Position numbers and translations under genes: made by a program | Source: Gammaproteobacteria bacterium | GTDB taxonomy: Bacteria > Pseudomonadota > Gammaproteobacteria > Steroidobacterales > Rariloculaceae | Assembly: GCA_035644475.1 (NCBI GenBank) | Contig: DASQOL010000018.1 | Location: 15,495 to 79,494, forward strand | DNA: 64,000 nucleotides | Direction: 5' to 3' | Notes under the pieces: generated by a model | What the model saw: only the letters and a program-made list of their open reading frames with translations | Told to the model about the DNA's origin: nothing | Databases searched by the model: none | In this document: positions 13,328 to 45,729 of the stretch, in pieces | How positions within the stretch are numbered: position 1 is the stretch's first letter | Layout of the letters: every line of letters begins with the position of its first letter

Positions 13328-14002
13328 TCAGCCCGGCGCGGGGAGCGACCCGCCGCTCGGGGCGGGTTCGATGACGCCGCAGGCGACCGGCGCGCCCGAA
13401 TTGCCGGACGGCGGGGACTCGAGGTCGTCCTCGCCCGCATGGACCACCAGCGCATGACCGATCATCTGGAAGTCCGGCTCGCTCCCGAGCACCGCGTCCT
13501 GCAAGCTCGTGCGCACGTTACCCGCCTGATCCGCCACCACGTTGCCCAGGTCGCCCGGATGGCGTGCGTCGCGCGCGTCGGTGGGCGCCCCGTGCGGCGC
13601 GTCGTGCGGGTTCAAGTGTTTACCGGCCGACGACGCGTCGGCTGCGCTGCAGTCGCCGAACTCGTGAACATGGATGCCGTGCGGGCCCGGCGTGAGGCCG
13701 CTCAGCATCACGTCGAGCGTGACCGTGGTGCCGCTCTCGGCGAAATACACCGTGCCGCGAGCGTCGTTGCCGGCCGTCGGCTCGAGAGTGGCGCGAGCCA
13801 CGGTGCGCGGCGGCGCGTCCGTCTCGGTACGCGGCGCAAGCGCGAGCGGCGGCGGCGCGGCACGATCCGCGGACGCAGCTTCCGGCGGCGCGAGGCGCGC
13901 TCCGTCACCCGCTGGTTGCTGCTCACACCCGAGCGTGACCACGGCGATCGCACCTGCCACGAGCATCGAGCCGACGCTCGATCGGAGACTTGAGTTACGC
14001 AT
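13328..14002 (-). CDS. sodC: Cu/Zn superoxide dismutase, probable lipoprotein
   Basis: HGIHVHEFGDCS, HPGDLGN and ALVVHAGEDD...GNSGAPVACGVI are SodC copper/zinc ligand and C-terminal motifs. The signal peptide ends in ...VVTLGC (lipobox-like). SD GGAGGAAGG lies upstream. Confidence 0.92.
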   Translation of the reverse strand: MRNSSLRSSVGSMLVAGAIAVVTLGCEQQPAGDGARLAPPEAASADRAAPPPLALAPRTETDAPPRTVARATLEPTAGNDARGTVYFAESGTTVTLDVMLSGLTPGPHGIHVHEFGDCSAADASSAGKHLNPHDAPHGAPTDARDARHPGDLGNVVADQAGNVRTSLQDAVLGSEPDFQMIGHALVVHAGEDDLESPPSGNSGAPVACGVIEPAPSGGSLPAPG

Positions 14003-14055: not shown

Positions 14056-14181
14056 GCCGTGCCTCTAGAGCCGATATTCACCGACCCGTCGCCGAAGCAC
14101 CTCCAATAGCAGCAAGGGCCGTGCCAACCTGCCGGCGCCGTGGCATGGAATCTGCACCGAACTCAACGGAGGACGCGCCTT

Positions 14182-28381: not shown

Positions 28382-29869
28382 TCAATTCAGCGCGAGATTC
28401 TCCGGCGCCGCGGGTTGCTTCGCAGCGAGGTTCGGGCCGAAGCGCAGCGCGCCCATGTCCATCGGTTCGTTGTGAGCGGTGGTGTTGTAGTCGAGCTGAA
28501 ACGTATCGCCGCCCGACGACATGTTGAGCGGCTCGTCGTCGCCTGCTCCGATCACCGACGATCCATTCGCCACTTCGAAGTCGCTCCAAGTGACCTGGTC
28601 GGCGCTGCTGATGGATCGCCAACCGGACATCTTCGCGAGCGAGAGGCCCGTGAATCGATTGCCGGAGCTCGTGTAGCCGCCGCCGGGGTTGCCATTGCTG
28701 AAGTAGTTGTTCGTCGCGGTCATGCCGGCCAAGTCCGTGCCGCTCACGTCGCGCGTGCCGGAGGAAAGCGACAGCAGGATGTTGTTGATGAACCTGGAGT
28801 TCGGCTTGGGTACGCTCGCCTGCAGCGTGACCTGCGTTTCGTTGTCCACGAAGGTGTTGTTGAAGACCAGGAGCCCGTCCAACGAGGTGAGCGAATATTC
28901 GCCCCAAATGGCGAAGCCGGAGCTCGTGAATGCCACGAGATTGTCGTACACCCTCGCGCGCTGCGACTGGACCGAGGACAGCAGGGCGGCTACCGACTCG
29001 TAGTGGTAACTCTCGTTGTTGAGCGCGATGCCGGCGCCCACGGTGCGGCTCGTGCGCCAGTACTCGGAATTGGTGGTGCCGACCACGACGTTGCGGCGAA
29101 TCGTGGTGTTCGGCGACGCGTCGGCGTAGATGCCCACGGCGCGGGCGCCGTAGACGTAGTTGCCTTCGATCACCGTCCCGTCGGCGCCGCCGTTGGCGTT
29201 GATCCCTTCGCCGTAGACTTCGGTGACGGTGTTGCCTTGGAGGATGGCGCCGGTCGTTGCTTGAACCTCGATGCCCCCACCCCACGGCGCACCTTCCTTG
29301 ATGCCCTTTCCGGTGTGCGTGACGCGGTTCTGCTCCGCGCGCGGGCTCGTGGAGCGCAGGAACTGGATTCCGCTGTTATAGGCCCCGTCGACCGAGCAGC
29401 CGACGACGGCGGAGGACTGAGAGTCGGCGACGTCGATGCCGCGGCCTCGCGAGTTGATGACCTTGATGTTCTCGACGCGGACCCAATTGGCGCGCACACG
29501 CAGCAACGCGTCGTAGTGGTCGCTCGGCAGCGTGTTACCGCCGTCGATGACCGGCCGGCTCGTGGCGTAACCCCGCGTGGCGACGCCGTTCTTCAGGTAG
29601 TACGCGCCGACCATGGCCAGTTGCGACGACGTGCCGGCCCATTTGACGGTCAGCGTCCCGCTGAAGGTGTCACCCTCGTGAAACAGCACGATGTCGCTCG
29701 TGGCTAAGCTCTGCTTGCTGACCTTGCCGAGCGTCGCCCAGGCCGTGGCATGCGAACGGCCGTCGCCGTTGTCGTTGCCGTCTGCGCGTACGTAGTACGT
29801 GGCGGCCTCCGCCGCGGACGCGACGAGCAGCAACGAAGCGAGAAGGCATGAGAAGAGAACGGACCGCAT
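28382..29869 (-). CDS. Secreted right-handed parallel beta-helix repeat protein (pectate-lyase-fold; putative glycan lyase, hydrolase or epimerase)
   Basis: Signal peptide ...LLLVASAAEA followed by ATYYVRADGNDNGDGRSHATAWATL. Repeated N/G/I/V-rich coils (NSRGRGIDV, GGGIEVQ, GEGINANG, AVGIYAD, GAGIALNN). SD AAGGAG. Local GC is about 60% versus ~70% in the flanks. Confidence 0.75.
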   Translation of the reverse strand: MRSVLFSCLLASLLLVASAAEAATYYVRADGNDNGDGRSHATAWATLGKVSKQSLATSDIVLFHEGDTFSGTLTVKWAGTSSQLAMVGAYYLKNGVATRGYATSRPVIDGGNTLPSDHYDALLRVRANWVRVENIKVINSRGRGIDVADSQSSAVVGCSVDGAYNSGIQFLRSTSPRAEQNRVTHTGKGIKEGAPWGGGIEVQATTGAILQGNTVTEVYGEGINANGGADGTVIEGNYVYGARAVGIYADASPNTTIRRNVVVGTTNSEYWRTSRTVGAGIALNNESYHYESVAALLSSVQSQRARVYDNLVAFTSSGFAIWGEYSLTSLDGLLVFNNTFVDNETQVTLQASVPKPNSRFINNILLSLSSGTRDVSGTDLAGMTATNNYFSNGNPGGGYTSSGNRFTGLSLAKMSGWRSISSADQVTWSDFEVANGSSVIGAGDDEPLNMSSGGDTFQLDYNTTAHNEPMDMGALRFGPNLAAKQPAAPENLALN

Positions 29870-30557: not shown

Positions 30558-30573
30558 TGGAACGATTCGTGCA
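30558..30573 (+). promoter_or_regulatory. Candidate sigma-54 (-24/-12) promoter for the methyltransferase gene
   Basis: TGGAAC-GATTC-GTGCA has correct GG-N10-GC spacing and 2 mismatches to TGGCAC-N5-TTGCA. It lies 47 nt upstream of ATG 30620 and is preceded by a 16-bp-stem hairpin at 30515-30551. Confidence 0.4.
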
Positions 30574-30619: not shown

Positions 30620-31573
30620 ATGCGGATTCGTGCCTTATTGAAAGGCGCCTTGACGTTCGTGCCCGGCGCGCCGGCCCTGTTGCCGAAACCCCCTCCGGGC
30701 TCGACCACGGCCACGTCCTATTACTACGGAGTCTGGCTCAAGCACCTCGGTTTGCTCGCCGCGAACGGGCTCGACACCTCACCCACCGTGGTCGCCGAGC
30801 TCGGGCCCGGCGACACTCTCGGCGTCGGCCTCGCGGCGCTGCTCTGCGGCGCGGACAAGTACTACGCGCTCGATCTCCTCGCCTACACCCAGCCGAGGAA
30901 GAACCTGGCGGTGCTCGACGAGCTGATCGCGCTGCTGTCGAAGCGCACGCCGCGGCCGGACAAGGGCTTTCCCGAGTTCGCCTACTCGCGCGGCGGCGAG
31001 CTCTTTCCGACCGAAGTGCTCACCGACGAAAGGCTCGCGCGCGCATCGTCGCCGGCACGGCTCGCGCATCTACGCGAGGCGCTCGGGAGCGACACCCCCC
31101 GGGCAGGACCGATAGTGGTCCAGTACCGCGCGCCGTGGGACGACGCCGCCGTGATCGAGCGCGACTCCGTCGATCTGGTCGTCTCGCAATCGGTGCTCGA
31201 GCACGTCGACGATCTCGACACCGCGTATCGCGCGCTGTACCAGTGGCTGCGGCCCGGCGGCGTGATGAGCCACTTGATCGACCTGCGGTCGCACGGCCTC
31301 ACCAAGGAATGGAACGGCCACTGGTCGATCTCGGATCCGATGTGGGCGGTGATGCGCGGCAAGCGATCGTTTCTCATCAATCGCGAGCCCTGCTCGGCGC
31401 ACCTGGAGCACATTCGGCGGTGCGGTTTCGAGATCCTCTACGTTGCGCAGCGCCGTGGCGCGGCCGGCATCGGCCGCGCGCGCTTGAGCAAACGCTGGCA
31501 ACCCCTGTCGGACGACGACTTCTCGTGCAATTCGGTTTTCATCCAGGCACGGAAACCGACGGGACAGGCCTAA
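30620..31573 (+). CDS. Class I SAM-dependent methyltransferase
   Basis: Motif I VVAELGPGDTLGVGLAALLCGADKYYALD, and motif post-II/III VDLVVSQSVLEHVDDL...LRPGGVMSH. SD GGTGGGAG. Confidence 0.8.
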   Translation: MRIRALLKGALTFVPGAPALLPKPPPGSTTATSYYYGVWLKHLGLLAANGLDTSPTVVAELGPGDTLGVGLAALLCGADKYYALDLLAYTQPRKNLAVLDELIALLSKRTPRPDKGFPEFAYSRGGELFPTEVLTDERLARASSPARLAHLREALGSDTPRAGPIVVQYRAPWDDAAVIERDSVDLVVSQSVLEHVDDLDTAYRALYQWLRPGGVMSHLIDLRSHGLTKEWNGHWSISDPMWAVMRGKRSFLINREPCSAHLEHIRRCGFEILYVAQRRGAAGIGRARLSKRWQPLSDDDFSCNSVFIQARKPTGQA

Positions 31574-31666: not shown

Positions 31667-33370
31667 CTATTCGAGGGCGCCAGCGCTCGGCCGACCGTTG
31701 CGGGTCTTGCATTCGTAGTCGTATGTCAGCGCCTTCGCCCATTCGGTAGGCGACGGCTGACAAGTCGACCAAGAGAATTCACGCATCGACGGTGGGAACG
31801 CCTTGAGGTCGATCACCGTGCGGTCCTCGGAGTCGCCCGCGTGCTCTGCAACGGACGCCTTCGATGGGGACGACTTGGACGGGCGAAAGTTTGCAGGCGG
31901 TGGAATCGCGCCGGAATGAACCGCGGAATAGTCGAGCGGAATCCCGGCGGCGCCGATCTTGGCATTCGTGCCCACGCAAGCGTCGTCGGACGGCCGCGTG
32001 CCGAACACGTTCGAATCGACGGTGAGCAACGACGCCGGCGCTTCGGGAAGCGCGCAATTGCGGCCGGCTTTAGCCGAGAACACGTTGTCGACGATCTCGA
32101 TCTTGTCGATGTTGTTCTTCACGGTGAGATTCGCGCTTGTGACGTAGAGGCCCTTCTCTTGCAGACAGGTATTGCCGTAGACCAGCGCACCCACTTGATA
32201 GCCTTTCGCCGCGGGGTCGTCGCAGTCCCCACTCCCGCAGTTGTACTTCGATTCTCGAAACACCTCGAGATTGATGCACCCGCGGGTATTGGCCATGAGG
32301 TTGTTTCTGAAGACGTTATGAACCGAGCTGCGCATGTCGTGCTTGTAGGGCTCCACGGCAATGGATAGGCCGATGCCGTAAGACTCGTCGACGCCGTTCA
32401 GATAGCCGTTGCCGAGCAACACGTTGTGCTCGACGACGTTGTCGGAAGCGTTGTCGAGGTAGATCAAGGGACGGCGAACATTCGCCAGCGTGTTGCCGCG
32501 AATGATCGTGTGCGAGGAGCGCAGAACGCCGATCCCCTCGCCCCCGGAATTGCCGAGAGTATTGCCTTCGATCAAGGTGTAGGACGGAGCGGAATCGATC
32601 ACGACGATCGCCGGCGACCACGTTTTGGTGCGGCCGTCGACCTTCTTGACCGACACGGTATCGATGCTGTTGTTGCGCAGGATGTCGCTTTTCACGCGCT
32701 GCAAGCGAATGCCCGCCTCCACGGTCTGAGCTATCGACAGGTTTTGGACGACGAGGTCCGACGTGGTGTTATCGCCGACGTGAACCAATCCTGCCCCGGA
32801 AGAGTCGGCGAGGGCGAGGTCTTGCACGGTTACGTGACTCGTCCTTACTGTGATGAGGCCGTTCCACTGATTGGCGGGCACGGCGTCTTTGTTGTCGGCG
32901 TCGACGCCGACGGGGCACGTCGACGGCGTCGTCGAGCGGCAGGCAGAGCCGTAGGTTCCACGGATCGTCGGCCGCGAGCTGCCCTCGAAGCCCTGTAGGG
33001 CCTTGGACCCGACGACGTAGTACGAACCGATGATCACGCGGTTAGACGAAGATCCTTCCCACCCCACGGTCAACGCCTGATTGACGCACGTGGTGCCCGC
33101 TTTGATGAAGACGTCCGAACCGACGGCGTGCACCCCCGACTTCACCTTGCCGAGAGTCTTCCAGGGTTCCTGCGGGGAAGTGCCGCTCCCCGAGTCGTTA
33201 CCGCGGTCGCAGTCGACGAAGTAACCCTGCGCGTCGGAGTCCGCGTGGGCCGCGCCCGCGGCGGCCGCCAGCAACAACAACGCCGCGAGCCGCGTTGCGG
33301 CGGCTCGCAGCGGCCGAAAGCCTTGGCCTGCTTCGCCCGCGGGGGCCGCCTCGCTTCCCGTGTGGTCCAC
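31667..33370 (-). CDS. Secreted right-handed parallel beta-helix repeat protein (paralog-like of 28382..29869)
   Basis: The N-terminal mature region (GYFVDCDRGNDSGSGTSPQEPWKTLGKV...) parallels ATYYVRADGNDNGDGRSHATAWATLGKV in the other gene, and beta-helix coils run throughout. The start is reassigned to GTG 33370 (SD GAGGAG 6 nt upstream) because the listed ATG 33415 lies inside a sigma-54 promoter. Confidence 0.72.
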   Translation of the reverse strand: MDHTGSEAAPAGEAGQGFRPLRAAATRLAALLLLAAAAGAAHADSDAQGYFVDCDRGNDSGSGTSPQEPWKTLGKVKSGVHAVGSDVFIKAGTTCVNQALTVGWEGSSSNRVIIGSYYVVGSKALQGFEGSSRPTIRGTYGSACRSTTPSTCPVGVDADNKDAVPANQWNGLITVRTSHVTVQDLALADSSGAGLVHVGDNTTSDLVVQNLSIAQTVEAGIRLQRVKSDILRNNSIDTVSVKKVDGRTKTWSPAIVVIDSAPSYTLIEGNTLGNSGGEGIGVLRSSHTIIRGNTLANVRRPLIYLDNASDNVVEHNVLLGNGYLNGVDESYGIGLSIAVEPYKHDMRSSVHNVFRNNLMANTRGCINLEVFRESKYNCGSGDCDDPAAKGYQVGALVYGNTCLQEKGLYVTSANLTVKNNIDKIEIVDNVFSAKAGRNCALPEAPASLLTVDSNVFGTRPSDDACVGTNAKIGAAGIPLDYSAVHSGAIPPPANFRPSKSSPSKASVAEHAGDSEDRTVIDLKAFPPSMREFSWSTCQPSPTEWAKALTYDYECKTRNGRPSAGALE

Positions 33371-33405
33371 GGCCGTCTCCTCTGCACTGGTGACACAGAG
33401 ACGGC

Positions 33406-33421
33406 TGCAAGACATGTGCCA
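33406..33421 (-). promoter_or_regulatory. Sigma-54 (-24/-12) promoter with perfect core consensus
   Basis: Minus strand reads TGGCAC-ATGTC-TTGCA. It sits 29 nt downstream of the stop of permease 33450..35903 and about 36 nt upstream of GTG 33370. Confidence 0.7.
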
Positions 33422-33449
33422 CTTGCGGGCCCGGACGCGCGCGCTATCC

Positions 33450-35903
33450 CTATTCGTAGCGCAACGAGTGCAGGGGCTTCGCGCTCGCCGCGCGCAGTGC
33501 GATGCCCGCCACGGTGAGCCACGCGATCGCGAACGTCACGAGCGCGCCGCCGGCGAAGACCAGCGGGCTCAAGTCGATCCGGTAGGCGAAATCCGCGAGC
33601 CAGCGCCGCATCGCCAGGTACGCGATCGGCCACGCCACCACGTTCGACAGCAGCACGAGCCTGCTGAACTCTGACGTGAGCAACGTCACCACGTCGACCG
33701 CCGAGCCGCCGAGCGTCTTGCGAATGCCGATCTCCTTGGTGCGGCGTTCCGTGGTGAACGACGCGAGGCCGAAGAGTCCGAGGCAGGCGACGAAGATCGC
33801 AAGCGCCGCGAACACGCCGAAGATCTGCATCTGCCGCTCGTCGTTGGCGTACAGCGCGGCGAACTCGTCGTCGAGGAATGTGCGCGCCACCGGCAGGTCG
33901 GGCTGTATTTGCGACCACGTGGCGTCGATGAACGCGAGCGTCTCGCGCAAGCGTTTGCCCGTCACGCGAATCGACGCGTCGCGGAAATACACGATCGGCA
34001 GCCTCCAGGAGTCCGCCGCGGCGAAATACACGAGCGGCTTCTGCGGCTCGCGCAGCGTCTCGAAATACGTGTTCTTGACGACCCCGACGATCGGCCCGCG
34101 CACCGATGCCGAAAAGTTTCCGGAGAAGTCCGTCTCGAACCACTTGCCGATCGCCTCGTCCGGCGTGAAACCGAGCTCGCGGGCCGCGAGCTCGTTGAGC
34201 ACGTAGGCGCCCGGGGTGTTCGCCACGCCGTTTTGGTTCGGCAGCGTGAAGCCGTCGGTTCCGTAGTCACGCGAGAACGTGCGCCCGGCGAGCAACTCGA
34301 TGCCGTACGTTTCGAAGAAGCCGTAGTCGACCCCGGTGGCCAACATCTGTCGGCCCGCGGGGTCCGAGCCCTCGGCGCGAATCAGGCGAGTGCCCGCGCC
34401 GCCCGGACGCATGCCGCCCTGGATCACGGCAGTGATCTCGGGGTTCTCGAGCATGCGGTTGCGCGCAGCCTCGAAGCCCGGGCCTAACCCCACGGTCGGC
34501 GAGCCCGAGAGATGCACTACCTGCGCCGTGTCGAAGCCACGGTCCACGTCGCGCGCGAACCGCGTTTGCAGGTAGATCGTGACGGTCGCAATCAGCAGAA
34601 CGATGGACACCGCGAACTGGACGACCACGAGCGTGCCGCGCAGGCGCTGGCCGCCACGTCCGCGCGTCGCATCGCCTTTCAGCACCTTCACGGGCTCGAA
34701 GGCCGACAGATAGAACGCCGGGTAGCTGCCGGCGAGCAAACCAACGGCGAGCGCCAGCACGGCCAGCGTCGCGAGCGTACCCACATTGCCGTAGTCGAGC
34801 TCGATCGCCGTCCCGGCGAACGTGTTGAAGGGCGGCAGCAGCACCTCCACGAGCGCCACTGCGACGAGCGTCGCGAGCAACGCGTACAACACTGCTTCGC
34901 CCAAGAACTGCGCGACGAGCTGGCCGCGCACCGCGCCGATGACCTTGCGCACACCGATCTCGCGTGCGCGCTGCGCCGCGCGAGCAGTCGAGAGGTTCAT
35001 GAAGTTCACGCAGGCGATCAGCAAGATGCTGAGCGCGATCGCCGCGAACGCCGTGACGGTGGTCAAGCTACCCGGCGGCGTGAGCTCCTGCACGCGGCCG
35101 TGCAGGTGGATGTCGGCGAGCTTGGTCGCGATCATCGTCGCGGCAGAGTCACCCGGCCGGCGGTGGCTCGCCACGAATTGCGGGAACCTGCGCTCGAGCG
35201 ACTCGATGCGCGCGCCGGGCTTCAGCCTCACATAGGTGTGGTAGAACCAGAAGCTCCAATTGCCGTCGTAGTTCCAGCCGAGGACCTTGTCGCCGACGTC
35301 GAACGACGCGATCACCGTTGCGCTCAGATGGGTGTCGCGCGGTAGGTCGCGGATCACGCCGGTCACGGTGAGCGGCCATTGTCCTTCGAGGACCAACGTT
35401 TGGCCTACCGGGTTCTCCGCGCCGAAGTATTTCGCCGCCGCGCCTTGCGTCAATACGACCGTGGACGGCTCGGTGAGCGCCCGTTTCGGGTCGCCCGCCA
35501 CCCAGTCCAGCGCGAATATGTCGAAGAAGCTCGCGTCCGCCCAGCGAAAACCATCCTCGTAGAAGGTATCGGCGCCGTGTCGCAGCCGCACGCTCTGCCG
35601 CGCGATCCGCGCCACCTGATCCACGTCGGCGGCGAAGTCGAGCTCGAGCTGCGGACCGGCCGGATAGAAGTTCGGAGCGGCGTGCATGGCCGCGCCGCCG
35701 TTGCCGGTGGGAACCTCGGCGGAGATCCGATAGATCCTGTCCGCGCCGGGGAAATGCTCGTCGAACGACAGCTCGTAGTGCACGTACAACAGGATCAGGA
35801 TCGCGCACGCGAGGCCGACCGCGAGGCCCGCGATGTTGAGCGTGGAGTAGAGCTTCTGGGTGACGAGCCGGCGAAAGCCGACCGCGAGATAGCTGCCGAT
35901 CAT
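33450..35903 (-). CDS. Duplicated FtsX/MacB-type ABC permease, tandem paralog 4
   Basis: Start ATG 35903 (MIGSYLAVGFRRLVTQKLYSTLNIAGLAVGLA), by alignment with the sibling N-termini and with an SD (AGGGAG). 817 aa, ending ...HSLRYE. The listed ORF 33450..37487 is an artefactual upstream extension. Confidence 0.85.
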   Translation of the reverse strand: MIGSYLAVGFRRLVTQKLYSTLNIAGLAVGLACAILILLYVHYELSFDEHFPGADRIYRISAEVPTGNGGAAMHAAPNFYPAGPQLELDFAADVDQVARIARQSVRLRHGADTFYEDGFRWADASFFDIFALDWVAGDPKRALTEPSTVVLTQGAAAKYFGAENPVGQTLVLEGQWPLTVTGVIRDLPRDTHLSATVIASFDVGDKVLGWNYDGNWSFWFYHTYVRLKPGARIESLERRFPQFVASHRRPGDSAATMIATKLADIHLHGRVQELTPPGSLTTVTAFAAIALSILLIACVNFMNLSTARAAQRAREIGVRKVIGAVRGQLVAQFLGEAVLYALLATLVAVALVEVLLPPFNTFAGTAIELDYGNVGTLATLAVLALAVGLLAGSYPAFYLSAFEPVKVLKGDATRGRGGQRLRGTLVVVQFAVSIVLLIATVTIYLQTRFARDVDRGFDTAQVVHLSGSPTVGLGPGFEAARNRMLENPEITAVIQGGMRPGGAGTRLIRAEGSDPAGRQMLATGVDYGFFETYGIELLAGRTFSRDYGTDGFTLPNQNGVANTPGAYVLNELAARELGFTPDEAIGKWFETDFSGNFSASVRGPIVGVVKNTYFETLREPQKPLVYFAAADSWRLPIVYFRDASIRVTGKRLRETLAFIDATWSQIQPDLPVARTFLDDEFAALYANDERQMQIFGVFAALAIFVACLGLFGLASFTTERRTKEIGIRKTLGGSAVDVVTLLTSEFSRLVLLSNVVAWPIAYLAMRRWLADFAYRIDLSPLVFAGGALVTFAIAWLTVAGIALRAASAKPLHSLRYE

Positions 35904-35923: not shown

Positions 35924-38362
35924 TCATTCGTAGCGCAAGGCGCGAGCGGGTTTCGTGCTCGCGGCCCGCGCCGCGACGCCGCCCACCGTGATGCAGGCGA
36001 TCGCGAGCGCGGCGAGCGCGCTGCCGACGAAGATCCACGGGCTCATATCCGCGCGGTAGGCGAACGACGACAGCCAGCGCTGCATTGCGATGTACGCGAC
36101 CGGCCACGCGACGAGATTCGCCACGAGCACGAGCCGCCCGAACTCGCCGCAGAACATCAGCACGATGTCGCCCACACCGCCGCCGATCGTCTTGCGGATG
36201 CCGATCTCCTTGGTGCGCCGCTCGGTGGTGAAGGACGCGAGGCCGAAGAGGCCCAAGCACGCGATGCCGATCGCGAGCAAGGCGAAGAACGTGAACATCT
36301 CGCCCTGGCGCTGCTCCGTGGCGTACAGCGCCTCGAAGTCGGCGTCGAGAAAGTGCCGCGCGATCGGCCGGTCGGGCATGAATTTGGACCAGACGGCGTC
36401 GATGTCCGCGAGCGTCGCGGCAAGGTTGCGGCCCGTGACTTTGAGCGACGCCTGGTCCAAAGGCTGGAAGCCCAAGCCGTCGGGCACGAGCATGTAGACC
36501 GTCGGCTCGATCGCGCTCCGGATGGACTCGAAGTGGACGTCTTTCACGACCCCGACGATCGGTGCGCGAACGGCGGGGCTGTCCGGCCCAAGATACGAGA
36601 CGCTGAGCCACTTGCTCGTCGCCTCCTCCGGCGTCCAGCCGTAGCGACGGGCGAGGCTCTCGCCGATCACGTAGCTGCCGGGGCGCGCGCCCCCCGGCGC
36701 CGTCGCGAGCGCCGGCCTGTCGGCGGCGCGTTGCTCGTCGAAAACGCGGCCGGCGACGGCTTCGATGCCGTAGAGCTCGAAGAAACCGAAGTCCACAGCG
36801 AGATCCGTGATGCCGCTGCCCGCACCCTCGTGGCCTTCGGCGACGACGTAGGCCGCATTCGTGTTCTCCATGCCGGGCACGAGATTCGAGGCCGTTACGG
36901 CCGCGACCTCGGAATTCGCGAGCCACTCCTGCTTCATCGCTTCCCATTGCGTGCCGAGGCCGCCGGTCCAGGACCCCGTGACCACGACGATTCGCTCCTT
37001 GTCGTAGCCGAGATCGATGTCGCGCGCGAACCGGGTTTGCTCGAAAACAACCCCGGTCGCGATCAAGAGCGCGATCGAGATCGCGAATTGCAGCACCACG
37101 AGCCCGCGGCGGAACGCCGCCGCGCCGCCGCCGCGGGTCGCATCGCCCTTGAGCACGCGGCCGGGCTCGAACGCGGCGAGGTAGAACGCCGGATAGCTGC
37201 CCGCGAGAAGCCCGGTAACGAAGGTGAGAGCGACCAGCCCCACGATCGCGCCCGGGCTGTCGAGATAGTGAAACGCGATGTTCGTTCCCAGGAACGCGTT
37301 GAACGCCGGCAGCGCGACCTCGACGATCGCCATCGCGAGCAGCAGCGCGACGCCGGCGATGAGCACCGACTCCGCGAGGAACTGCACCACGATCTGCCTG
37401 CGGTCGGCGCCGACGACCTTGCGTACGCCGATTTCCTTCGCGCGCTGCGTCGCGCGCGCGGTAGCGAGGTTCATGAAGTTGATGCAAGCGAGCAGCAGGA
37501 TGAACACGGCCACCGCGGCGAACGTGCGGACCGTGCTCGCGCTGCCCGGCACGCTCATCTCGTTCTCCTTGTGCGATTTCAGGTGGATGTCGGCGACCTT
37601 GAAAATGTCGAGCCGCGTGTAGCGGCTCGAGTCCTTCTCGAAACGGCGCTCGAAGAAGTCGTCCGAGCCCTTCCGGATCTCGTCAGGGTTCGCACCGGGG
37701 CGCAGCAAAGCGTACGTGTAAAACGCGTTCGCGCCCCAATTCGGCGCGGGCGGCGGCATCTGCATGAGCAGCGAGAACTTGAGATGCGTGTCGTCCTTGA
37801 GGTCCTCGATGACGCCTGTGACGTCCAACGGCGTCGTGCCGTCGAGCAGCATCGTCTGCCCGACGGGGTCGGCGTCGCCGAAGTACTTCCGGGCGATGCT
37901 CCGAGTCAGCACGACCGTATTCGGCTTCGCGAGCGCGGACTTCGGGTCGCCACGCAGCCAACGGAAGTCGAAGACCTCGAGAATCTCCTTGTCGGCCGAC
38001 GCGGCGTCGCCCTCGAGGTACAGCGAGCCGTCCGGCGCACGGAACGTCGCGCCGTCGCAGCATCGAATCCGTGCGATCGTTTCGATGATCGGGAAATCCT
38101 CCTTGAGCACGTCGGCAGCCGGCGCCGCGAGCGACGCGAGATAGGCCGCTTTGCTAATCTCGGTCGGCAAGAAGTCGCGCGAGATTCGGACGATCCGATC
38201 GGCGTTCGTCCAGCCCCGGTCGTAGACGAGCTCGTGGCGCACGAACAGCGAGATCAGGACGAAGCACGCGAGGCCGACCGAGAGCCCCACGACGTTGATC
38301 AGCGTGTAGAGCTTCTGCTTGACCAGATGCTGGAATGCGACGAGCACATAGTTCTTCAGCAC
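35924..38362 (-). CDS. Duplicated FtsX/MacB-type ABC permease, tandem paralog 3
   Basis: 812 aa. (GTG)MLKNYVLVAFQHLVKQKLYTLINVVGLSVGLA ... ARALRYE. SD GAGGAG lies 9 nt upstream. Confidence 0.85.
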   Translation of the reverse strand: MLKNYVLVAFQHLVKQKLYTLINVVGLSVGLACFVLISLFVRHELVYDRGWTNADRIVRISRDFLPTEISKAAYLASLAAPAADVLKEDFPIIETIARIRCCDGATFRAPDGSLYLEGDAASADKEILEVFDFRWLRGDPKSALAKPNTVVLTRSIARKYFGDADPVGQTMLLDGTTPLDVTGVIEDLKDDTHLKFSLLMQMPPPAPNWGANAFYTYALLRPGANPDEIRKGSDDFFERRFEKDSSRYTRLDIFKVADIHLKSHKENEMSVPGSASTVRTFAAVAVFILLLACINFMNLATARATQRAKEIGVRKVVGADRRQIVVQFLAESVLIAGVALLLAMAIVEVALPAFNAFLGTNIAFHYLDSPGAIVGLVALTFVTGLLAGSYPAFYLAAFEPGRVLKGDATRGGGAAAFRRGLVVLQFAISIALLIATGVVFEQTRFARDIDLGYDKERIVVVTGSWTGGLGTQWEAMKQEWLANSEVAAVTASNLVPGMENTNAAYVVAEGHEGAGSGITDLAVDFGFFELYGIEAVAGRVFDEQRAADRPALATAPGGARPGSYVIGESLARRYGWTPEEATSKWLSVSYLGPDSPAVRAPIVGVVKDVHFESIRSAIEPTVYMLVPDGLGFQPLDQASLKVTGRNLAATLADIDAVWSKFMPDRPIARHFLDADFEALYATEQRQGEMFTFFALLAIGIACLGLFGLASFTTERRTKEIGIRKTIGGGVGDIVLMFCGEFGRLVLVANLVAWPVAYIAMQRWLSSFAYRADMSPWIFVGSALAALAIACITVGGVAARAASTKPARALRYE

Positions 38363-38492: not shown

Positions 38493-40928
38493 TCACTCGT
38501 ACCGCAACGATTGAATCGGCTTCGCCGCGGCCGCGCGGGCCGCGACGACGCCCACCGTGAGCCACGCAACCGCGAGCACGAGCAGCCCGCCGCCGACGAA
38601 CAGCGGCGCGCCGAGATCGATGCGATACGCGAACTGGTCGAGCCAGCGGCGCATCACGAGATACGCGACCGGCCAGGCGACGGCGTTCGCAAGCACCGCC
38701 AGACGGCTAAGCTCGCCGGTGAACAAGCGCACGATGTCCACGACCGACCCGCCCATGACCTTGCGGATCCCAATTTCCTTGGTGCGCTGCTCGGTGGTCA
38801 GAGCCGCGAGCCCGAACAGGCCGAGGCTCGCCACGAGAATCGCTAGAGACGAGCAAACGCCCAGCATCTGCGCCTGCTTGCGCTCGCCGCGATAGAACCT
38901 ATCGAAGTCGTCGTCCAGGAATCGACGGGCGATCGGCCGCTCCGGCACGGCGCGCGCCCACACGGCGTCGATGCGCGCGAGCGTGCCCGCGACATCGCCG
39001 CCGGTGAGCTTGATCGATGCCGTGTTGAAATACGTCTGCGGCAATATCAACATCATCGGCCCCACCGGATCGCGTAGCGGCGCGAAGTGAACGTCGTCGA
39101 TCACCCCGACGATGCGACGCGCGGCTTGGTCGGCGGACGGACCCATCGCCGGCGCCGTGAGATCCGCTCCCCAAAATGCTTTGCCGACGGCCTCGTCCGG
39201 CGTCCACCCGAGGGCTCGCGCCGTGGCCACGTTCACGATCGCCCCCCGCGTAGCGCGGAGGTCCCTCGGGCCGGCGGCATCGAGCGAATCGGCGCCGAAG
39301 TCGCTCGAGAAGCCTCGCCCCGCCAACACCTCGATGCCGTAGGTCGACAGGAAGTCGGAGTCGACCGCGACGATGCTAGTGTTCACGGGCAGGGCCTCTG
39401 GGTCGCCGCCCTCGCCGTGGATCAAGTCCCTCATGGGATCGCCGCCGGGCGCGGCGCTCGATCCGCTGACGGCCGCGACGCCGGACTCCGCGAGCCACTC
39501 CCGCTTCAGGACCTCCCACCGCTGCGCGAGCAGGCCGGCGCGGCCGTCGCTCACGACGACGATCTGCGTCTTGTCGAATCCGACGTCGAACGTCCGCATG
39601 AACATGACCTGGCGATAAACCACCGCGGTCGCGATCGTGAGCGCTATCGAGATTGCAAACTGCGCGCCGACCAGCACGCGGCGCACCGTCGCAGCACCGC
39701 GACCGCGAGTGAGATCGCCCTTCAGCACCTTTGCGGGCTCGAACGCCGCCACGTAGAACGCGGGGAACATGCCGGCCGCGAGGCCGACGAGCACGGTAAC
39801 CGCGGCCAGAGCGCCGAGCACCACGGGGTCGCGACGGTAGTCGAGCTCGAGGTCCATTTCGAGAAACGCCCCTACGAGAGGCAGCAGCAGCTCGACGGCC
39901 GCGAGCGCGAGCAGAGCGGCCGCGGCGGTGAGCAGCAGCGACTCGCCCAAGAACTGCACGACGAGCCGCGGGCGCCCGACGCCGAGCGTCTTGCGCACGC
40001 CGACCTCCTTCGCACGCCGGCGCGCCGAGGCGGTCGCGAGATTCACGAAATTGATGCAGGCAATCGCTAGGATCAGCGCTGCGATGACGCCGCTCGCGTA
40101 CACCGTTACGGCGCTGCCCTTCGGCCGCATGTCGTCGTAGCGAGACTCGGCGAGGTGGACCGCCATCAGCGGCTCCGGCACGAAGTCTTGGACCGCGCCG
40201 AGCCCGTCCGGCATGTGATGCACGAGGAAGTCGTGCGCCCCGGCTTGCAAGCGCCGGACGCTCGCGCCGGGGCGCATCAGCACGTACGTGTGAACGACCC
40301 CGTTGTTCCCGTCGAGCACCCGCAGCGGCACGAGCATGTCGAAGCGCAGATGCGTGTTGTCCGGGAGGTCACGGATCACGCCGGTGACGGTGAATGACTG
40401 CGCGAGCTCGTTCGACTCGAGAGTACGCCCGAGCGCCGCGGTCTCGCCGAAGTAGCGGCGCGCCGTGCTCGCAGCCAGCACGATCGAGTGCGGATCCCGC
40501 AGCGCCGTGGCGGGACTGCCTTCGAGCCAATCGAACTCGAAAACATCGAGGAACGCGTCGTCTATCGCGGCGAGCCACCCCCCGACTTGCATTTGCCCGT
40601 CGATCGTCACGAGCGCGTTGCTCGAGAGGGACTGCAGACGCGCCGCCGTTTCGACCTCCGCGAACTCGGCCGGCAGCAGCGGGACGACGTCCACCGGCAT
40701 CGTGGCGACGGGCAGCGCCTCGCCGTTCGGCAACTTGAAGGACCTCGCCAACCGGTATGTGCGGTCCGCCTTCACGAAAAAACGGTCGTAGCTGAGCTCG
40801 TGCCGCACGTACAACCCGAGCAGCATCGCGGCCGCGAGGCCGACGGCGAGGCCGAGCACGTTGATCGTGGAATATAGCCTTTGCGCTACCAGGTGGCGCA
40901 GTGCAATTGCTAGATGGCTTCGGAACAT
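38493..40928 (-). CDS. Duplicated FtsX/MacB-type ABC permease, tandem paralog 2
   Basis: 811 aa. MFRSHLAIALRHLVAQRLYSTINVLGLAVGLA ... IQSLRYE. Confidence 0.85.
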   Translation of the reverse strand: MFRSHLAIALRHLVAQRLYSTINVLGLAVGLAAAMLLGLYVRHELSYDRFFVKADRTYRLARSFKLPNGEALPVATMPVDVVPLLPAEFAEVETAARLQSLSSNALVTIDGQMQVGGWLAAIDDAFLDVFEFDWLEGSPATALRDPHSIVLAASTARRYFGETAALGRTLESNELAQSFTVTGVIRDLPDNTHLRFDMLVPLRVLDGNNGVVHTYVLMRPGASVRRLQAGAHDFLVHHMPDGLGAVQDFVPEPLMAVHLAESRYDDMRPKGSAVTVYASGVIAALILAIACINFVNLATASARRRAKEVGVRKTLGVGRPRLVVQFLGESLLLTAAAALLALAAVELLLPLVGAFLEMDLELDYRRDPVVLGALAAVTVLVGLAAGMFPAFYVAAFEPAKVLKGDLTRGRGAATVRRVLVGAQFAISIALTIATAVVYRQVMFMRTFDVGFDKTQIVVVSDGRAGLLAQRWEVLKREWLAESGVAAVSGSSAAPGGDPMRDLIHGEGGDPEALPVNTSIVAVDSDFLSTYGIEVLAGRGFSSDFGADSLDAAGPRDLRATRGAIVNVATARALGWTPDEAVGKAFWGADLTAPAMGPSADQAARRIVGVIDDVHFAPLRDPVGPMMLILPQTYFNTASIKLTGGDVAGTLARIDAVWARAVPERPIARRFLDDDFDRFYRGERKQAQMLGVCSSLAILVASLGLFGLAALTTEQRTKEIGIRKVMGGSVVDIVRLFTGELSRLAVLANAVAWPVAYLVMRRWLDQFAYRIDLGAPLFVGGGLLVLAVAWLTVGVVAARAAAAKPIQSLRYE

Positions 40929-40937
40929 CGCCGCCGT

Positions 40938-43373
40938 CTACTCGAAACGCAACGATTGGATGGGCTTCGCAGCCGCCGCGCGCGCCGCGACTGCACCGAC
41001 CGTCGCGAACGCAACCGCGAGCGCTACCGCCGCGCCGCCGACAAACGCGAGCGGGCTCATCTCGACGCGATACACGAAGCCCGCCAGCCAGCGCTGCATC
41101 AAGAAGTAGGCCACAGGCCACGCTACGACGTTCGCGAGCAGCACGAGCTTGCCGAAGTCCGCCGTGAACAAGCTCACGACGTCCCAGACGGTACCGCCGA
41201 GCGTTTTGCGGATGCCGATCTCCTTGACGCGGCGCTCGGTCGAGAACCACGCAAGGCCGAGCAAGCCCAAGCACGCGATCGCGATCGCGAGCCCAGAGAA
41301 GAACGTCAGCAGCTGCGCCTGCCGCTCCTCGGACCGATACAGCGCGTCGAAGTCGTCGTCGAGGAAGCGCCGCACGACCGGCCGGTCGGGAACGTGCTCG
41401 CGCCAGATCGCGTCGATGCGCGCGAGCGTCGCGGTTAAATCCTCACCCGTGACGCGCACGGATATCGTGTCGACGAAGCCGTAGAGCTGGCTCGCGGGGT
41501 CGCCGCCGAAAATGTAGATCATCGGCCGCACCGGCAGCGCGACCGACTCGAAGTAGGTGTCGCGCACCACGCCGAGCACGCGGGCCGGCGCCCAGCCGGC
41601 GAACAGGCCCACGTCCACCGGCTGCTCGGCCGCCTCGGCCGGCGACCAGCCGAGCATCCGCGCGGCCGACTCGTTGAGCACGACGGCCGGCGCAGCCGTC
41701 GGCGGCGTCGCGAGAAACGCGCCGGGGGCGACCTCCTGCGAGAACACTCGGCCGCCGAGCGTCTCGATTCGATACGTCTCGAAGAAGCCGTAGTCGACAG
41801 CCATGAACTGGATGCGGCTGAACGCCTCGGCACCCTGGTGGCGAACTTGGACCCGGTTGTCGTCCCAAGTAAACGGCGTGTAGTGCGACGCGGTGACACC
41901 GACGATGCCCGGCGTGCGCGCGAGCTCGTTCCGCAGCGCTTCCCAGTCGACGCCGCGAAGACCGGTTTGCGGCGGCGACTCGAGCACCACGATCTCGTTT
42001 CTGTCGAAGCCCAGATCGAGGCTTCGTGCGAAGCGGTCCTGCTGATAGATCACCGCCGTGCCGATCAGGAGCGCGATCGCGATGGCGAACTGCACCACCA
42101 CCAGCACGTTGCGGAACGCCGCGCCGGCGCGGCCGCGCGACACTTCGCCCTTGAGCACGCGCGCCGGCTCGAACGACGACAAGAAAAAAGCCGGATAGCT
42201 GCCCGCGAGCACGCCGACGGCAAGCGCGAGCAGGGCCAACTGCAATGCAAAGCCGCGCGGCCCGAAATACTCGAGCGTGAGATCGACGCCCAAGAACGTG
42301 TCGAACACCGGCAGCGCAATCTCCACGAGCACCGTGGCCGCGAGCGTCGCGAGCGCCGCCATGCCGATCGACTCGCCGAGGAACTGCCCGATCAGCTGGA
42401 GCCGCACCGCGCCGAGCGACTTGCGCACCCCCACTTCTCGCGCACGCTTCGCCGAGCGCGCGGTGGACAGGTTCATGAAGTTGATGCACGCGATCAGCAG
42501 AATCAGCGCGGCTACGGCTGCGAAGCTTGAGACGGACGCGTAGCTCGACGTCGCCTTCCATTCCTCGTCGCGAGTCGAGCGCATGTGGATGTCGCGCACG
42601 TTCATGATCGTCATGCCAGACGCAGCGCTCGCGTCCGGCGCGATCCGCCGGCTCATGAACTCCGGAATCCGCGCCTCGATCGCGCCGACGTCGGCGCCCG
42701 CGGGCATCAGGAAGTAGGTGTGGAAATCCGTATTGTTGTTCCACTGACTGAGCGCCGCGTCGGGCAGCGCCTTCATCGACCCGAGCGCGTCGAAGCTCAG
42801 ATGCGTGTTCGGCGGCAGGTCGCGGATCACGCCGGTGACCGTAACGACCGTGCGGCTGTCGATCTGCATCGTCTGGCCTAGCGCGGGCGTGGCGCCGAAG
42901 TACTTCTTCGCAAGCGACTCGGTGAGCACGATCGACGCGGGATCGGTAAGCGCGCGCTTCGGGTCGCCGGCGAGCCAGCCGAAGTCGAAGATGTCGAACA
43001 GCGAGTTGTCCGCCCAACGAAACCCGCTCTCGTAGAACGCGCGGTCGTCGTGGGTGAGCAGGGAGAAGCCGCCGAACACCCTCGCCGCGGTCTCGATCTC
43101 GGGAAAATCCTCGACCAGCGCGGGGGCGACAGGCGCATTATTCGAGGCGGGCACGCGGTTCGGTGCGCCCTCGCGCGCATAGTAGTCGCGCGAGATCCGA
43201 TAGATCCGGTCCGCCTTCGCCCAGAACGAGTCGTAACCGAGCTCGTGGCGCACGAACAGGGCGATCAGCACGACACTCGCGAGGCCGATCGCGAGACCGG
43301 CCACGTTGATCAGCGAATAGACCTTGTTCGTCGCCAGCTGGCGCAGCGCGACCGACAGATAGCTCTTAAGCAT
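40938..43373 (-). CDS. Duplicated FtsX/MacB-type ABC permease, tandem paralog 1
   Basis: 811 aa. MLKSYLSVALRQLATNKVYSLINVAGLAIGLA ... IQSLRFE. The start overlaps the ATPase stop by 8 nt (ATGCTTAA). Confidence 0.85.
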   Translation of the reverse strand: MLKSYLSVALRQLATNKVYSLINVAGLAIGLASVVLIALFVRHELGYDSFWAKADRIYRISRDYYAREGAPNRVPASNNAPVAPALVEDFPEIETAARVFGGFSLLTHDDRAFYESGFRWADNSLFDIFDFGWLAGDPKRALTDPASIVLTESLAKKYFGATPALGQTMQIDSRTVVTVTGVIRDLPPNTHLSFDALGSMKALPDAALSQWNNNTDFHTYFLMPAGADVGAIEARIPEFMSRRIAPDASAASGMTIMNVRDIHMRSTRDEEWKATSSYASVSSFAAVAALILLIACINFMNLSTARSAKRAREVGVRKSLGAVRLQLIGQFLGESIGMAALATLAATVLVEIALPVFDTFLGVDLTLEYFGPRGFALQLALLALAVGVLAGSYPAFFLSSFEPARVLKGEVSRGRAGAAFRNVLVVVQFAIAIALLIGTAVIYQQDRFARSLDLGFDRNEIVVLESPPQTGLRGVDWEALRNELARTPGIVGVTASHYTPFTWDDNRVQVRHQGAEAFSRIQFMAVDYGFFETYRIETLGGRVFSQEVAPGAFLATPPTAAPAVVLNESAARMLGWSPAEAAEQPVDVGLFAGWAPARVLGVVRDTYFESVALPVRPMIYIFGGDPASQLYGFVDTISVRVTGEDLTATLARIDAIWREHVPDRPVVRRFLDDDFDALYRSEERQAQLLTFFSGLAIAIACLGLLGLAWFSTERRVKEIGIRKTLGGTVWDVVSLFTADFGKLVLLANVVAWPVAYFLMQRWLAGFVYRVEMSPLAFVGGAAVALAVAFATVGAVAARAAAAKPIQSLRFE

Positions 43374-44070
43374 TGCCCGCTCTCCGCATCTGGCCGATGT
43401 TCTCGGTAACGACGCGCCCGTCGAGCATGTTCACGATTCGGCGCGCGTACTCGGCGTGGCTCCGCGAGTGCGTGACCATGATGACGGTCGTGCCCTCCTC
43501 GTTGAGCTTGACGAGCATGTTCATGACCTCCTCGCCGTTCGTCGTGTCGAGATTGCCCGTGGGCTCGTCGGCGAGTATCAGCTTCGGGGCCACGACCAGC
43601 GCACGCGCCACGGCGACGCGCTGCTGCTGACCGCCGGACAATTGCGTCGGCACATGGTTGCGGCGCGCGCTGATGCCGACCCTTTCCAGCACCGCGTCCA
43701 CGCGCCGTTTGCGTTCGGCCGCGGGCAACCGTTGATAGACGAGCGGCAGCTCCACGTTCGCGAACACCGTTAGCTCGTCGATGAGATTGAAGCTCTGGAA
43801 GATGAAGCCGATGTTGCGCTTGCGCAGCTGCGCGAGCTTGCGCTCCGGATACTTGGCGACGTCCTCGTCCATGAAGAAGTAGCGGCCGCTCGACGGGTTG
43901 TCGAGCATCCCGATGATGTTGAGCAGCGTCGACTTGCCGCAGCCCGACGGGCCCATGATCGCGGTGAACTCGCCCGCCGCGATCCCGAGGTCGACGTCGT
44001 TGAGCGCCGCGGTCTCGACCTCGGTGGTGCGAAACACCTTCGACAAGCTCTGCATGACCAGCATCGGCAT
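43366..44070 (-). CDS. ABC transporter ATP-binding protein, MacB/LolD family
   Basis: Walker A GPSGCGKST, Q-loop FIFQSFNL, signature LSGGQQQRVAVARAL, Walker B LILADEPTGNLD, H-loop VTHS. ATG 44064 has better SD spacing (GAGAGG) than ATG 44070. Confidence 0.92.
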   Translation of the reverse strand: MPMLVMQSLSKVFRTTEVETAALNDVDLGIAAGEFTAIMGPSGCGKSTLLNIIGMLDNPSSGRYFFMDEDVAKYPERKLAQLRKRNIGFIFQSFNLIDELTVFANVELPLVYQRLPAAERKRRVDAVLERVGISARRNHVPTQLSGGQQQRVAVARALVVAPKLILADEPTGNLDTTNGEEVMNMLVKLNEEGTTVIMVTHSRSHAEYARRIVNMLDGRVVTENIGQMRRAGNA

Positions 44071-44207: not shown

Positions 44208-44223
44208 AGCAACTCGCGGGCCA
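44208..44223 (-). promoter_or_regulatory. Sigma-54 (-24/-12) promoter for the ABC operon
   Basis: Minus strand reads TTGGCCCGCGAGTTGCT (TGGCCC-N5-TTGCT). It has one core mismatch and correct GG-N10-GC spacing, about 140 nt upstream of the ATPase start. Confidence 0.6.
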
Positions 44224-44312
44224 ACCCGCGAATGCCTGCGAACTCAATGAGTTGGGATTCCCGCTGGGCCCGGTAGGTGTCCGCAGATAGCACACTCAGT
44301 GTCCGCCGGCGT

Positions 44313-44342
44313 ACACTCGAACACACTCGAACGCACTCGAAT
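44313..44342. promoter_or_regulatory. Three tandem 10-bp direct repeats (ACACTCGAAC, ACACTCGAAC, GCACTCGAAT); candidate activator-binding or operator site
   Basis: The repeats are exactly helical-phased and lie in the divergent intergenic region. A degenerate fourth copy, CACACTCAGT, is at 44291-44300. They sit 90-120 bp upstream of the 44208-44223 sigma-54 promoter and 14 nt upstream of the regulator ATG. Confidence 0.5.
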
Positions 44343-44355
44343 CCAAGTGCCTGAC

Positions 44356-45729
44356 ATGACGCGCTCCGGCCGAATTCTCGTCATCGACGACGACGTGGGC
44401 GTGCTCACCGCCGCCCGCCTGCTGCTCAAGCGGCACTTCGCCGTGGTGCAGACCGAGTCGGACCCGACCAAGCTGCCGGACCTCCTCGACGCCGGCTTCG
44501 ACGTCGTTCTGCTCGACATGAACTTCGCGCGCGGCGCCGACAGCGGCGCGGAAGGTCTCGCGTGGCTCGCCAAGATCCTCGAGATCGATCCCGGCATCGT
44601 CGTGGTATTGATGACCGCGTACGGCGACGTGTCGACGGCCGTCAACGCCATCAAGGCGGGCGCCACCGACTTCGTGCTGAAGCCCTGGCAGAACGAGAAG
44701 CTCGTGGCCACCGTTACCGCCGCGCTGAGCCTGCGCGACTCGCGCGACGAGGTCGGGCGGCTGCGCTCCCGCGAGCGCGAGCTCGTCGACGCGGCGAGCG
44801 GCGCGGTGCAGCCCGTGATCGGCAACGCGGCCCCGATGCGCCACGTGTTCGAGATGGTGCGCCGCGCGGCGCCCACCGACGCCAACGTTCTCATCCTGGG
44901 CGAGAGCGGTGTCGGCAAGGAGCTCGTCGCGCGCCTGCTCCACCAACAGTCGCGGCGCGCGGCCGAGGTCTTCATGTCGGTCGACCTGGGCTCCGTGAGC
45001 CAAACGTTGTTCGAGAGCGAGCTGTTCGGCCACCGTCGCGGCGCGTTCACCGACGCGCGCGAGGAGCGCGCCGGCCGCTTCCAGGCCGCGTCCCGCGGCA
45101 CGCTGTTCCTCGACGAGATCGGTAATCTGCCCCTGCATCTGCAGGGCAAGCTCCTCTCCGCGCTCGAGCAGCGCACCGTGACGCCGCTCGGCAGCGACCG
45201 CGCGTTGCCGATCGACGTGCGGCTCGTGAGCGCCACCAACAAGCCGCTTGCCGCGCTCGCGGGCACAGGCGAGTTCCGCGAGGACCTGCTCTACCGAATC
45301 AACACGGTGGAGATTCGGGTCCCGCCGCTCCGCGAGCGCGTCGAGGACATCGCGCCGCTGTTCGACCACTTCGTCGAGATCTACGCGCGCAAGTACAACC
45401 TGCCGCCGAAGCGCCTGTCACGCGTCGGGCTCAAGCGGCTCGAGGCGTACGCGTGGCCCGGCAACGTGCGCGAGCTGCGGCACGCGGTCGAGCGCGCGCT
45501 CATCATGAGCGACGCACCGATGCTCGACGCACACGACTTCCTGCTCGCGCCCGAGCGCCGCAGCGGCGGCGACGGGCTCAAGCTCGACGACTACAACCTC
45601 GAGACGGTCGAGAACCGCGTGATCCAGGCGGCGCTCGAAAAGCACGGCGGCAACGTGAGCCGCGCCGCGCGCGAGCTCGGCATCACGCGTGCGTCGTTGT
45701 ATCGGCGCATGGAAAAGTATGGGCTATAA
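44356..45729 (+). CDS. Sigma-54-dependent response regulator (NtrC family: REC, AAA+, Fis-HTH)
   Basis: REC ILVIDDDVGVL...VVLLDMNF. AAA+ Walker A GESGVGKE, sigma-54 contact loop GAFTDA, RVPPLRER. HTH GGNVSRAARELGITRASLYRRMEKYGL. ATG 44356 is preferred over the listed GTG 44299. Confidence 0.92.
   Translation: MTRSGRILVIDDDVGVLTAARLLLKRHFAVVQTESDPTKLPDLLDAGFDVVLLDMNFARGADSGAEGLAWLAKILEIDPGIVVVLMTAYGDVSTAVNAIKAGATDFVLKPWQNEKLVATVTAALSLRDSRDEVGRLRSRERELVDAASGAVQPVIGNAAPMRHVFEMVRRAAPTDANVLILGESGVGKELVARLLHQQSRRAAEVFMSVDLGSVSQTLFESELFGHRRGAFTDAREERAGRFQAASRGTLFLDEIGNLPLHLQGKLLSALEQRTVTPLGSDRALPIDVRLVSATNKPLAALAGTGEFREDLLYRINTVEIRVPPLRERVEDIAPLFDHFVEIYARKYNLPPKRLSRVGLKRLEAYAWPGNVRELRHAVERALIMSDAPMLDAHDFLLAPERRSGGDGLKLDDYNLETVENRVIQAALEKHGGNVSRAARELGITRASLYRRMEKYGL

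Follow-up and report, generated by a model that had tools for sequence, protein, structure and literature searches.

Whether a gene lying directly behind a transporter operon belongs to that operon or carries a promoter of its own is the question raised by the beta-helix gene considered here, which is the last in a block of same-strand genes in a stretch of 64 kb (hereafter the window) and whose longest open reading frame begins inside what looks like a sigma-54 promoter. We examined the element itself, its fate in orthologous loci, the start codon, the predicted product and the possible regulators. The features immediately involved are as follows.

31667-33370, minus strand: gene for a predicted secreted right-handed beta-helix protein of 567 aa, with a GTG start at 33370
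33406-33421, minus strand: putative sigma-54 core promoter TGGCAC-ATGTC-TTGCA (TGGCACATGTCTTGCA), from direct reading
33420-33419 and 33408-33407, minus strand: GG of the -24 element and GC of the -12 element
33450-35903, minus strand: fourth and last duplicated FtsX/MacB_PCD permease, 817 aa (Pfam)

The sigma-54 core behind the last permease

Read directly on the minus strand, the element consists of TGGCAC (33421-33416), the spacer ATGTC (33415-33411) and TTGCA (33410-33406), with exactly 10 nt between GG and GC and all 11 core positions matched. It stands on the sense strand, 35 nt before the GTG at 33370 and 28 nt behind the permease stop codon (TAG, 33452-33450). The sequence-only reading had reported a perfect sigma-54 promoter between the last permease and the beta-helix gene, and direct reading confirms a sigma-54 core at this place and on this strand. 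Its coordinates fit the 16-nt core, but the 18-mer that it quoted (GTGGCACATGTCTTGCAG) spans 33422-33405; likewise, it rightly put the element close behind the permease stop, but the distance from the TAG to the first T of TGGCAC is 28 nt and not 29. The exact TGGCAC-N5-TTGCA core occurs once on the two strands of the window, against 0.01 occurrences expected from 100 dinucleotide shuffles, and sites with at most one mismatch to the core number five against 1.04 expected, a count reached by only 2 of the 100 shuffles.

The element shares with canonical RpoN -24/-12 promoters the full TGGCAC and TTGCA blocks, the GG-N10-GC spacing and the sense orientation, and like them it is kept in orthologues and has a gene for an NtrC-type activator in its neighbourhood. 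It departs from the long consensus mrNrYTGGCACG-N4-TTGCWNNw, which was derived from 186 promoters of 47 species (quoted in PMC2725144), in that the weak flanking positions are mostly unmatched, for example by an A in place of the G after TGGCAC. The epithet “perfect” thus holds for the 11 specified core positions but not for these flanks. Unlike canonical RpoN promoters, it has only 28 nt of non-coding DNA upstream, and no enhancer site was found.

Conservation in orthologous loci

The beta-helix protein family is rare, with 12 matches among 5.8 billion clustered proteins, and its nearest named relative comes from a soil MAG labelled Gammaproteobacteria. Seven independent loci with upstream DNA (L001, L002, L003, L004/L005, L006, L007 and L010) make up the ortholog count; P0009, which comes with no DNA, and L012, whose contig starts inside the gene, were left out of it. 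Scanning for further orthologous loci yielded, among genome contigs, only a MAG contig already represented and, among metagenome contigs, only a frameshifted beta-helix remnant on L009. This remnant (3001-3284 of a 55.8-kb metagenome contig) covers residues 413-507 at ~59% identity and looks like a decayed copy.

All seven loci carry a GG-N10-GC element on the sense strand upstream of the orthologue, matching 9-11 of the 11 core positions and lying 23-39 nt before the likely start, or 69 nt before it in L010. The individual elements and their upstream contexts are these.

L001: TGGCACATGTCTTGCA, a 16-mer identical to that of the window, 27 nt after a permease stop
L002: TGGCACACCCCGTGCA (TGGCAC-N5-GTGCA), 3 nt after the stop of a Calx-beta gene
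L004/L005: TGGCACATCTCGTGCA (TGGCAC-N5-GTGCA), behind a Calx-beta gene (L002 and L004 together: 3-50 nt after the Calx-beta gene)
L010: AGGCACGAACCGTGCA (AGGCAC-N5-GTGCA), with a small gene upstream that has a faint GST-N match
L003: TGGCGCCGTTCTTGCA (TGGCGC-N5-TTGCA), back-to-back with a cytochrome oxidase (COX1) gene
L006: TGGCGCTGTTCTTGCA (TGGCGC-N5-TTGCA), on a contig that begins 35 nt before the element and has no upstream neighbour
L007: TGGTCCGCGTATTGCA (TGGTCC-N5-TTGCA), in a gene context of its own

When the window and the seven loci are aligned, the GG, the C that follows it and the TGCA are the only invariant positions; columns are on average 41% identical, and the flanks have diverged. 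Among the other genes of these loci, 3 of 34 have such a site upstream, compared with all seven orthologues (Fisher p = 5e-6), and those three control sites themselves look like genuine sigma-54 promoters. Collapsing the loci to four context groups gives a joint chance of ~3e-10. Some of this conservation reflects common ancestry among the related orthologues, most of all between the window and L001. The occurrence of the element at a fixed place in seven of seven loci, in differing contexts and between diverged flanks, suggests that selection maintains it as a -24/-12 element linked to this gene. Operon read-through cannot have left the element behind in L003, where the neighbouring gene upstream is transcribed in the opposite direction. 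The earlier proposal that the beta-helix gene has a sigma-54-type promoter of its own therefore stands, with a -24/-12 element at the same place in every orthologue fetched, whatever the upstream gene. The locus also offers a clean case in which a promoter prediction was validated by orthologues in differing gene contexts, without recourse to expression data. From the sequence, 33406-33421 appears to be a sigma-54 promoter of the ordinary kind, serving the gene of a predicted exported protein that resembles enzymes, and it changes nothing in what is known of sigma-54.

The L003 contig, from a Gammaproteobacteria MAG, also carries an exact-core sigma-54 site, TGGCACGTGCCTTGCA (10899-10914, minus strand), with a 50-aa ORF and a DUF3175 gene immediately downstream of it.

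The start codon of the beta-helix gene

Two start codons in the same frame compete at this locus.

33413-33415, minus strand: ATG within the N5 spacer, at which the longest ORF opens
33377-33382, minus strand: Shine-Dalgarno (SD) sequence GAGGAG, followed by 6 nt (ACGGCC) and the GTG at 33370-33368

Direct reading bears out both of the observations on which the earlier reassignment of the start was built, namely that the ATG at 33415 lies within the N5 spacer and that the GTG at 33370 has a GAGGAG six nucleotides upstream. The two codons are 15 codons apart, and the intervening stretch translates to MSCSRLCVTSAEETA. Pairing with the anti-SD sequence is predicted at -7.2 kcal/mol before the GTG against -2.5 kcal/mol before the ATG; positions across the window average -3.2 kcal/mol, with the 5th percentile at -7.0 kcal/mol, which places the SD of the GTG among about the best 5% of random positions. 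The called ATG start of L001 aligns codon for codon with the GTG at 33370, with nine residues preceding a shared AGEA in both. The ATG in the L001 spacer is out of frame, as it lies 49 nt from the start of the L001 gene, and the other six loci (L002, L003, L004, L006, L007 and L010) have no ATG in the spacer. The additional 15 residues (MSCSRLCVTSAEETA) are without counterpart in any orthologue, and the gene call in a public protein collection (P0002, 567 aa) begins VDHTG, which corresponds to the GTG start.

Were the ATG at 33415 the true start, the motif would fall inside coding sequence. This reading has in its favour that the codon is the first start of the open frame and an ATG, but it is extremely unlikely given the missing SD, the out-of-frame equivalent in L001, the lack of an ATG in the spacers of the other orthologues, the unmatched 15 residues and the public call. 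The reassignment to GTG 33370 accordingly holds up, on the homologous codon of L001, the SD and the lack of any counterpart of the 15 residues, but it is not new: since P0002 already uses the GTG, it corrects only the longest-ORF listing and not an existing annotation. The comparative evidence supports the sigma-54 promoter call and the GTG start call well, and we consider it highly probable that both are correct. With them, a rare and so far uncharacterised family of predicted exported beta-helix proteins of soil bacteria would gain both a regulatory assignment and a correct gene model, of 567 aa from a GTG start.

Proposed transcription of the gene

We propose that 33406-33421 is a working sigma-54 (RpoN) promoter belonging to the beta-helix gene. 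As established for sigma-54 in general, its RNA polymerase would bind the GG (-24) and GC (-12) as a closed complex, which an ATP-hydrolysing enhancer-binding protein would then open. The -24/-12 geometry is known to place the start of transcription ~12 nt downstream of the GC (PMC2725144), which gives one further feature.

33395, minus strand: predicted start of transcription, 12 nt beyond the C of the -12 GC

A leader of ~25 nt from 33395 would carry the GAGGAG, and translation from the GTG at 33370 would yield a 567-aa precursor with a Sec-type signal peptide as its first 43 residues. Once exported, the mature product would be a right-handed beta-helix rich in cysteine and of the carbohydrate-active kind. 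Sigma-54 binding, a start near 33395, dependence on an activator and export are the parts of this scheme that we infer.

Neither a terminator-like structure nor a sigma-70-like site was found in the 28-nt gap behind the permease. With no terminator between the permease operon and the beta-helix gene, read-through may add to expression, both here and in L001. A more radical version would have the element non-functional or weakly used and the beta-helix gene expressed by read-through as the sixth gene of the ABC operon, for which the short gap, its lack of a terminator-like structure and the failure to find an enhancer upstream can be cited. Set against this are the conservation of the element in seven of seven loci within flanking DNA that is not conserved (chance ~3e-10), the divergent upstream gene of L003, which makes read-through impossible there, and the presence of a different upstream gene in L002 and L004; we regard it as improbable. 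Still less probable, in our estimation, is that the element mainly holds a stable closed complex which, as a roadblock or insulator, stops transcription coming from the permease operon, and does not serve as a productive promoter. Sigma-54 holoenzyme does form stable closed complexes without an activator (PMC2725144), and the site lies directly behind an operon that has no terminator. A roadblock, however, would not account for an element kept 23-39 nt before the start even where no transcription arrives, as in L003 with its divergent neighbour, nor for its invariable position on the sense strand before an SD and a start codon. A productive promoter of the beta-helix gene itself thus remains our preferred reading.

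Two soil metatranscriptomes each contain one short contig that maps inside the beta-helix gene, X7 at 32874-33125 with one mismatch and X8, from a relative, at 33221-33368 with eight mismatches. The gene or its close relatives are therefore transcribed in soil. As neither contig reaches or crosses the promoter, they cannot separate transcription from it from read-through.

A 13-bp GC-rich hairpin followed by TTGTTGTTG (33281-33312, minus strand) falls within the part of the gene that codes for the predicted signal peptide, ~85-115 nt past the predicted start of transcription. The terminator scan that found it is at chance level (two found, 1.7 expected), and the hairpin is not obviously kept in L001.

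The predicted product

The protein matches Pfam Beta_helix (PF13229) at 38.8 bits against a cut-off of 25.9 and NosD (PF05048) at 32.0 bits against a cut-off of 23.6. An AlphaFold model built on a 12-sequence alignment (pLDDT 70.6, pTM 0.76) shows a long beta-helix made of a long run of short strands. Comparison of this model with the PDB by Foldseek ranks GH136 lacto-N-biosidases first (E = 4e-9), followed by PL9 and PL6 lyases, chondroitinase B, AlgG and phage depolymerases. All of the best matches are beta-helix enzymes, with E values ranging from 4e-9 to 1e-3, TM scores of ~0.3-0.4 and identities of 10-15%. By phmmer only the N-terminal cap motif is matched (E = 4e-4 to 7v6m over residues 48-117). 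The likeness to GH136 (7v6i/5gqc), PL9 Pel9A (1ru4), PL6 alginate/chondroitin lyases and the AlgG epimerase (4nk6) therefore extends to the fold and the N-terminal cap motif. Unlike these enzymes, the beta-helix protein has ~20 cysteines and a C-terminal region of ~90 residues modelled with low confidence, neither of which has a counterpart in them. The model points to a product that is a beta-helix of the carbohydrate-active type, and with TM scores of only 0.3-0.4 and identities of 10-15% we have not assigned it to a CAZy family (GH136, PL6 or PL9).

Inspection of the N-terminus suggests an export signal.

33242-33370, minus strand: predicted Sec signal peptide, residues 1-43, ending AHA/DS, by inspection

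The N-terminus reads RPLRAAATR-LAALLLLAAAAGAAHA, followed by DS, and in all orthologues a hydrophobic stretch and an A-x-A-like site likewise precede the conserved mature start GYFVDC. As would suit an exported protein, the ~20 cysteines are conserved, and in nine family members 11 of them never vary.

A paralogous secreted beta-helix gene is present at 28382-29869 (minus strand), 28% identical over 303 residues and with a good SD (AAGGAG). No GG-N10-GC site was found upstream of it, suggesting that the two paralogues are probably regulated differently.

The ABC operon, its regulator and a possible shared regulon

The remainder of the ABC operon and the genes that diverge from it comprise the following features.

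40938-43373, 38493-40928 and 35924-38362, minus strand: the other three permeases (Pfam MacB_PCD, FtsX)
43366-44070, minus strand: ABC ATPase (Pfam ABC_tran)
44208-44223, minus strand: sigma-54-like site TGGCCCGCGAGTTGCT, matching the core at 10 of 11 positions and lying upstream of the ABC ATPase gene
44312-44342, minus strand: three copies of a 10-bp direct repeat, GTTCGAGTGYG-like, 90-120 bp upstream of the ABC sigma-54-like site and just before the regulator ATG at 44356
44356-45729, plus strand: NtrC-type response regulator and enhancer-binding protein with receiver, Sigma54_activat and HTH_8 domains (Pfam Sigma54_activat E = 1e-61)
45689-47068, plus strand: PAS histidine kinase, partner of the regulator (Pfam HATPase_c, PAS)

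The four duplicated permeases are each ~811-817 aa long. The NtrC-type regulator gene is divergent from the ABC operon, has its real start at the ATG at 44356 and lies 11 kb from the beta-helix promoter. Its sigma-54 contact loop reads GAFTDA, not GAFTGA; this variant is among those compatible with activation (Kazakov et al., PMC4641369), and doubt about it has been raised for VfmH (PMC10714721). An intact Sigma54_activat activator together with other good sites upstream of window genes suggests that the organism uses sigma-54 control.

The direct repeat at 44312-44342 is unique in the window and is a candidate enhancer or operator, the only candidate for the ABC promoter. No copy of it, even with two mismatches, exists between 32515 and 34549 around the beta-helix promoter at 33421, and the only inverted repeat found in 33380-33800 is a weak GC palindrome. 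A k-mer search of the seven orthologous upstream regions returned as its best 9-mer CGGCGATCG, present in 7/7 regions against 4-6/7 in shuffles; being GC-rich and barely above the shuffles, it was not counted as an enhancer. As only 28 nt separate the promoter from the upstream gene, an enhancer, if there is one, would have to be located within the coding sequence of the permease.

The sequence-only reading had considered the beta-helix gene to be probably in the same regulon as the ABC operon. For this we found no support, since five of the seven other lineages keep the promoter without an adjacent ABC operon and the ABC repeat is not copied here, though neither is the proposal refuted. In its specific form, the local NtrC-type regulator and kinase would activate both 44208-44223 and 33406-33421, making the beta-helix gene and the four-permease transporter one regulon. 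This refines rather than contradicts the reading in which the gene has its own promoter. The two sites share sigma-54 geometry, a strand and a gene block, 44356-45729 is the sole activator gene found in the 64-kb window, and the order of permease then beta-helix gene recurs in L001. Conversely, L002, L003, L004/L005, L007 and L010 keep the promoter without an adjacent ABC or permease gene, no activator gene is found in the 14 kb of L003, and the candidate ABC enhancer repeat has no copy within a kilobase of 33421. We thus hold a shared regulon to be rather unlikely, yet a good deal likelier than read-through or a roadblock. Where the neighbours differ the promoter accompanies the gene, suggesting that it is a property of the beta-helix gene and not of the ABC locus, and this sets the regulation of the beta-helix gene apart from that of the neighbouring four-permease operon.

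The convergent methyltransferase gene

A second candidate partner lies on the other side of the beta-helix gene.

30620-31573, plus strand: methyltransferase gene converging on the beta-helix gene
30558-30573, plus strand: sigma-54-like site TGGAACGATTCGTGCA, 46 nt before the methyltransferase gene

The neighbours of the orthologues (Calx-beta, HAD and others) have only weak, domain-level matches in the window, and shared synteny is limited to the permease in L001 and the methyltransferase in L004. The L004 methyltransferase is an orthologue with 85% identity, and TGGAACGCTTCGTGCA is found at the same place (4470-4485, minus strand) within diverged DNA. On this sequence comparison the methyltransferase appears better supported than the ABC operon as a partner of the beta-helix gene. 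It is conceivable, and we offer it tentatively, that the beta-helix and methyltransferase genes, each with a conserved sigma-54 promoter of its own, together constitute a small and portable module under sigma-54, belonging to an uncultured lineage of soil proteobacteria, and that this module makes or remodels surface or extracellular polysaccharide in response to a signal. The beta-helix promoter often lies only 3-50 nt behind the stop of another gene. If the module is real, its promoter moves with the gene into unrelated neighbourhoods, so that the activator would need an enhancer in foreign coding sequence, would have to act from downstream, or would have to work without binding DNA.

L004 has a second methyltransferase gene, with TGGCCCAAACCTTGCA at 4700-4715, 63 nt upstream of its start.

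Other sigma-54-like sites and the cell exterior

A comparative study has linked sigma-54 promoters to the transport and biosynthesis of exopolysaccharide, lipopolysaccharide and other components of the envelope (Francke et al. 2011, PMC3162934). A putative sigma-54 promoter ahead of the gene for a predicted exported, enzyme-like protein fits this known link between sigma-54 and the cell exterior. In keeping with the “bacterial exterior” theme of that study, the promoter here precedes a predicted exported protein with the fold of polysaccharide enzymes, and elsewhere in the window sigma-54-like sites stand before a gene for polysaccharide export and before one for a periplasmic Cu/Zn superoxide dismutase. 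The latter is a second exact-core sigma-54 site, TGGCACGGCCCTTGCT (14111-14126, minus strand), 108 nt upstream of the superoxide dismutase gene (13328-14002, minus strand). The former belongs to a pair of near-identical sigma-54-like sites that point away from each other, TGGCATGGATATTGCT (11159-11174, minus strand) and TGGTATGGATATTGCA (11294-11309, plus strand); one of them faces the polysaccharide export gene (10497-11102, minus strand) and the other a kinase/Calx-beta gene. If the site at 11294-11309 is real, the listed start of the kinase/Calx-beta gene, 11256, would be too far upstream.
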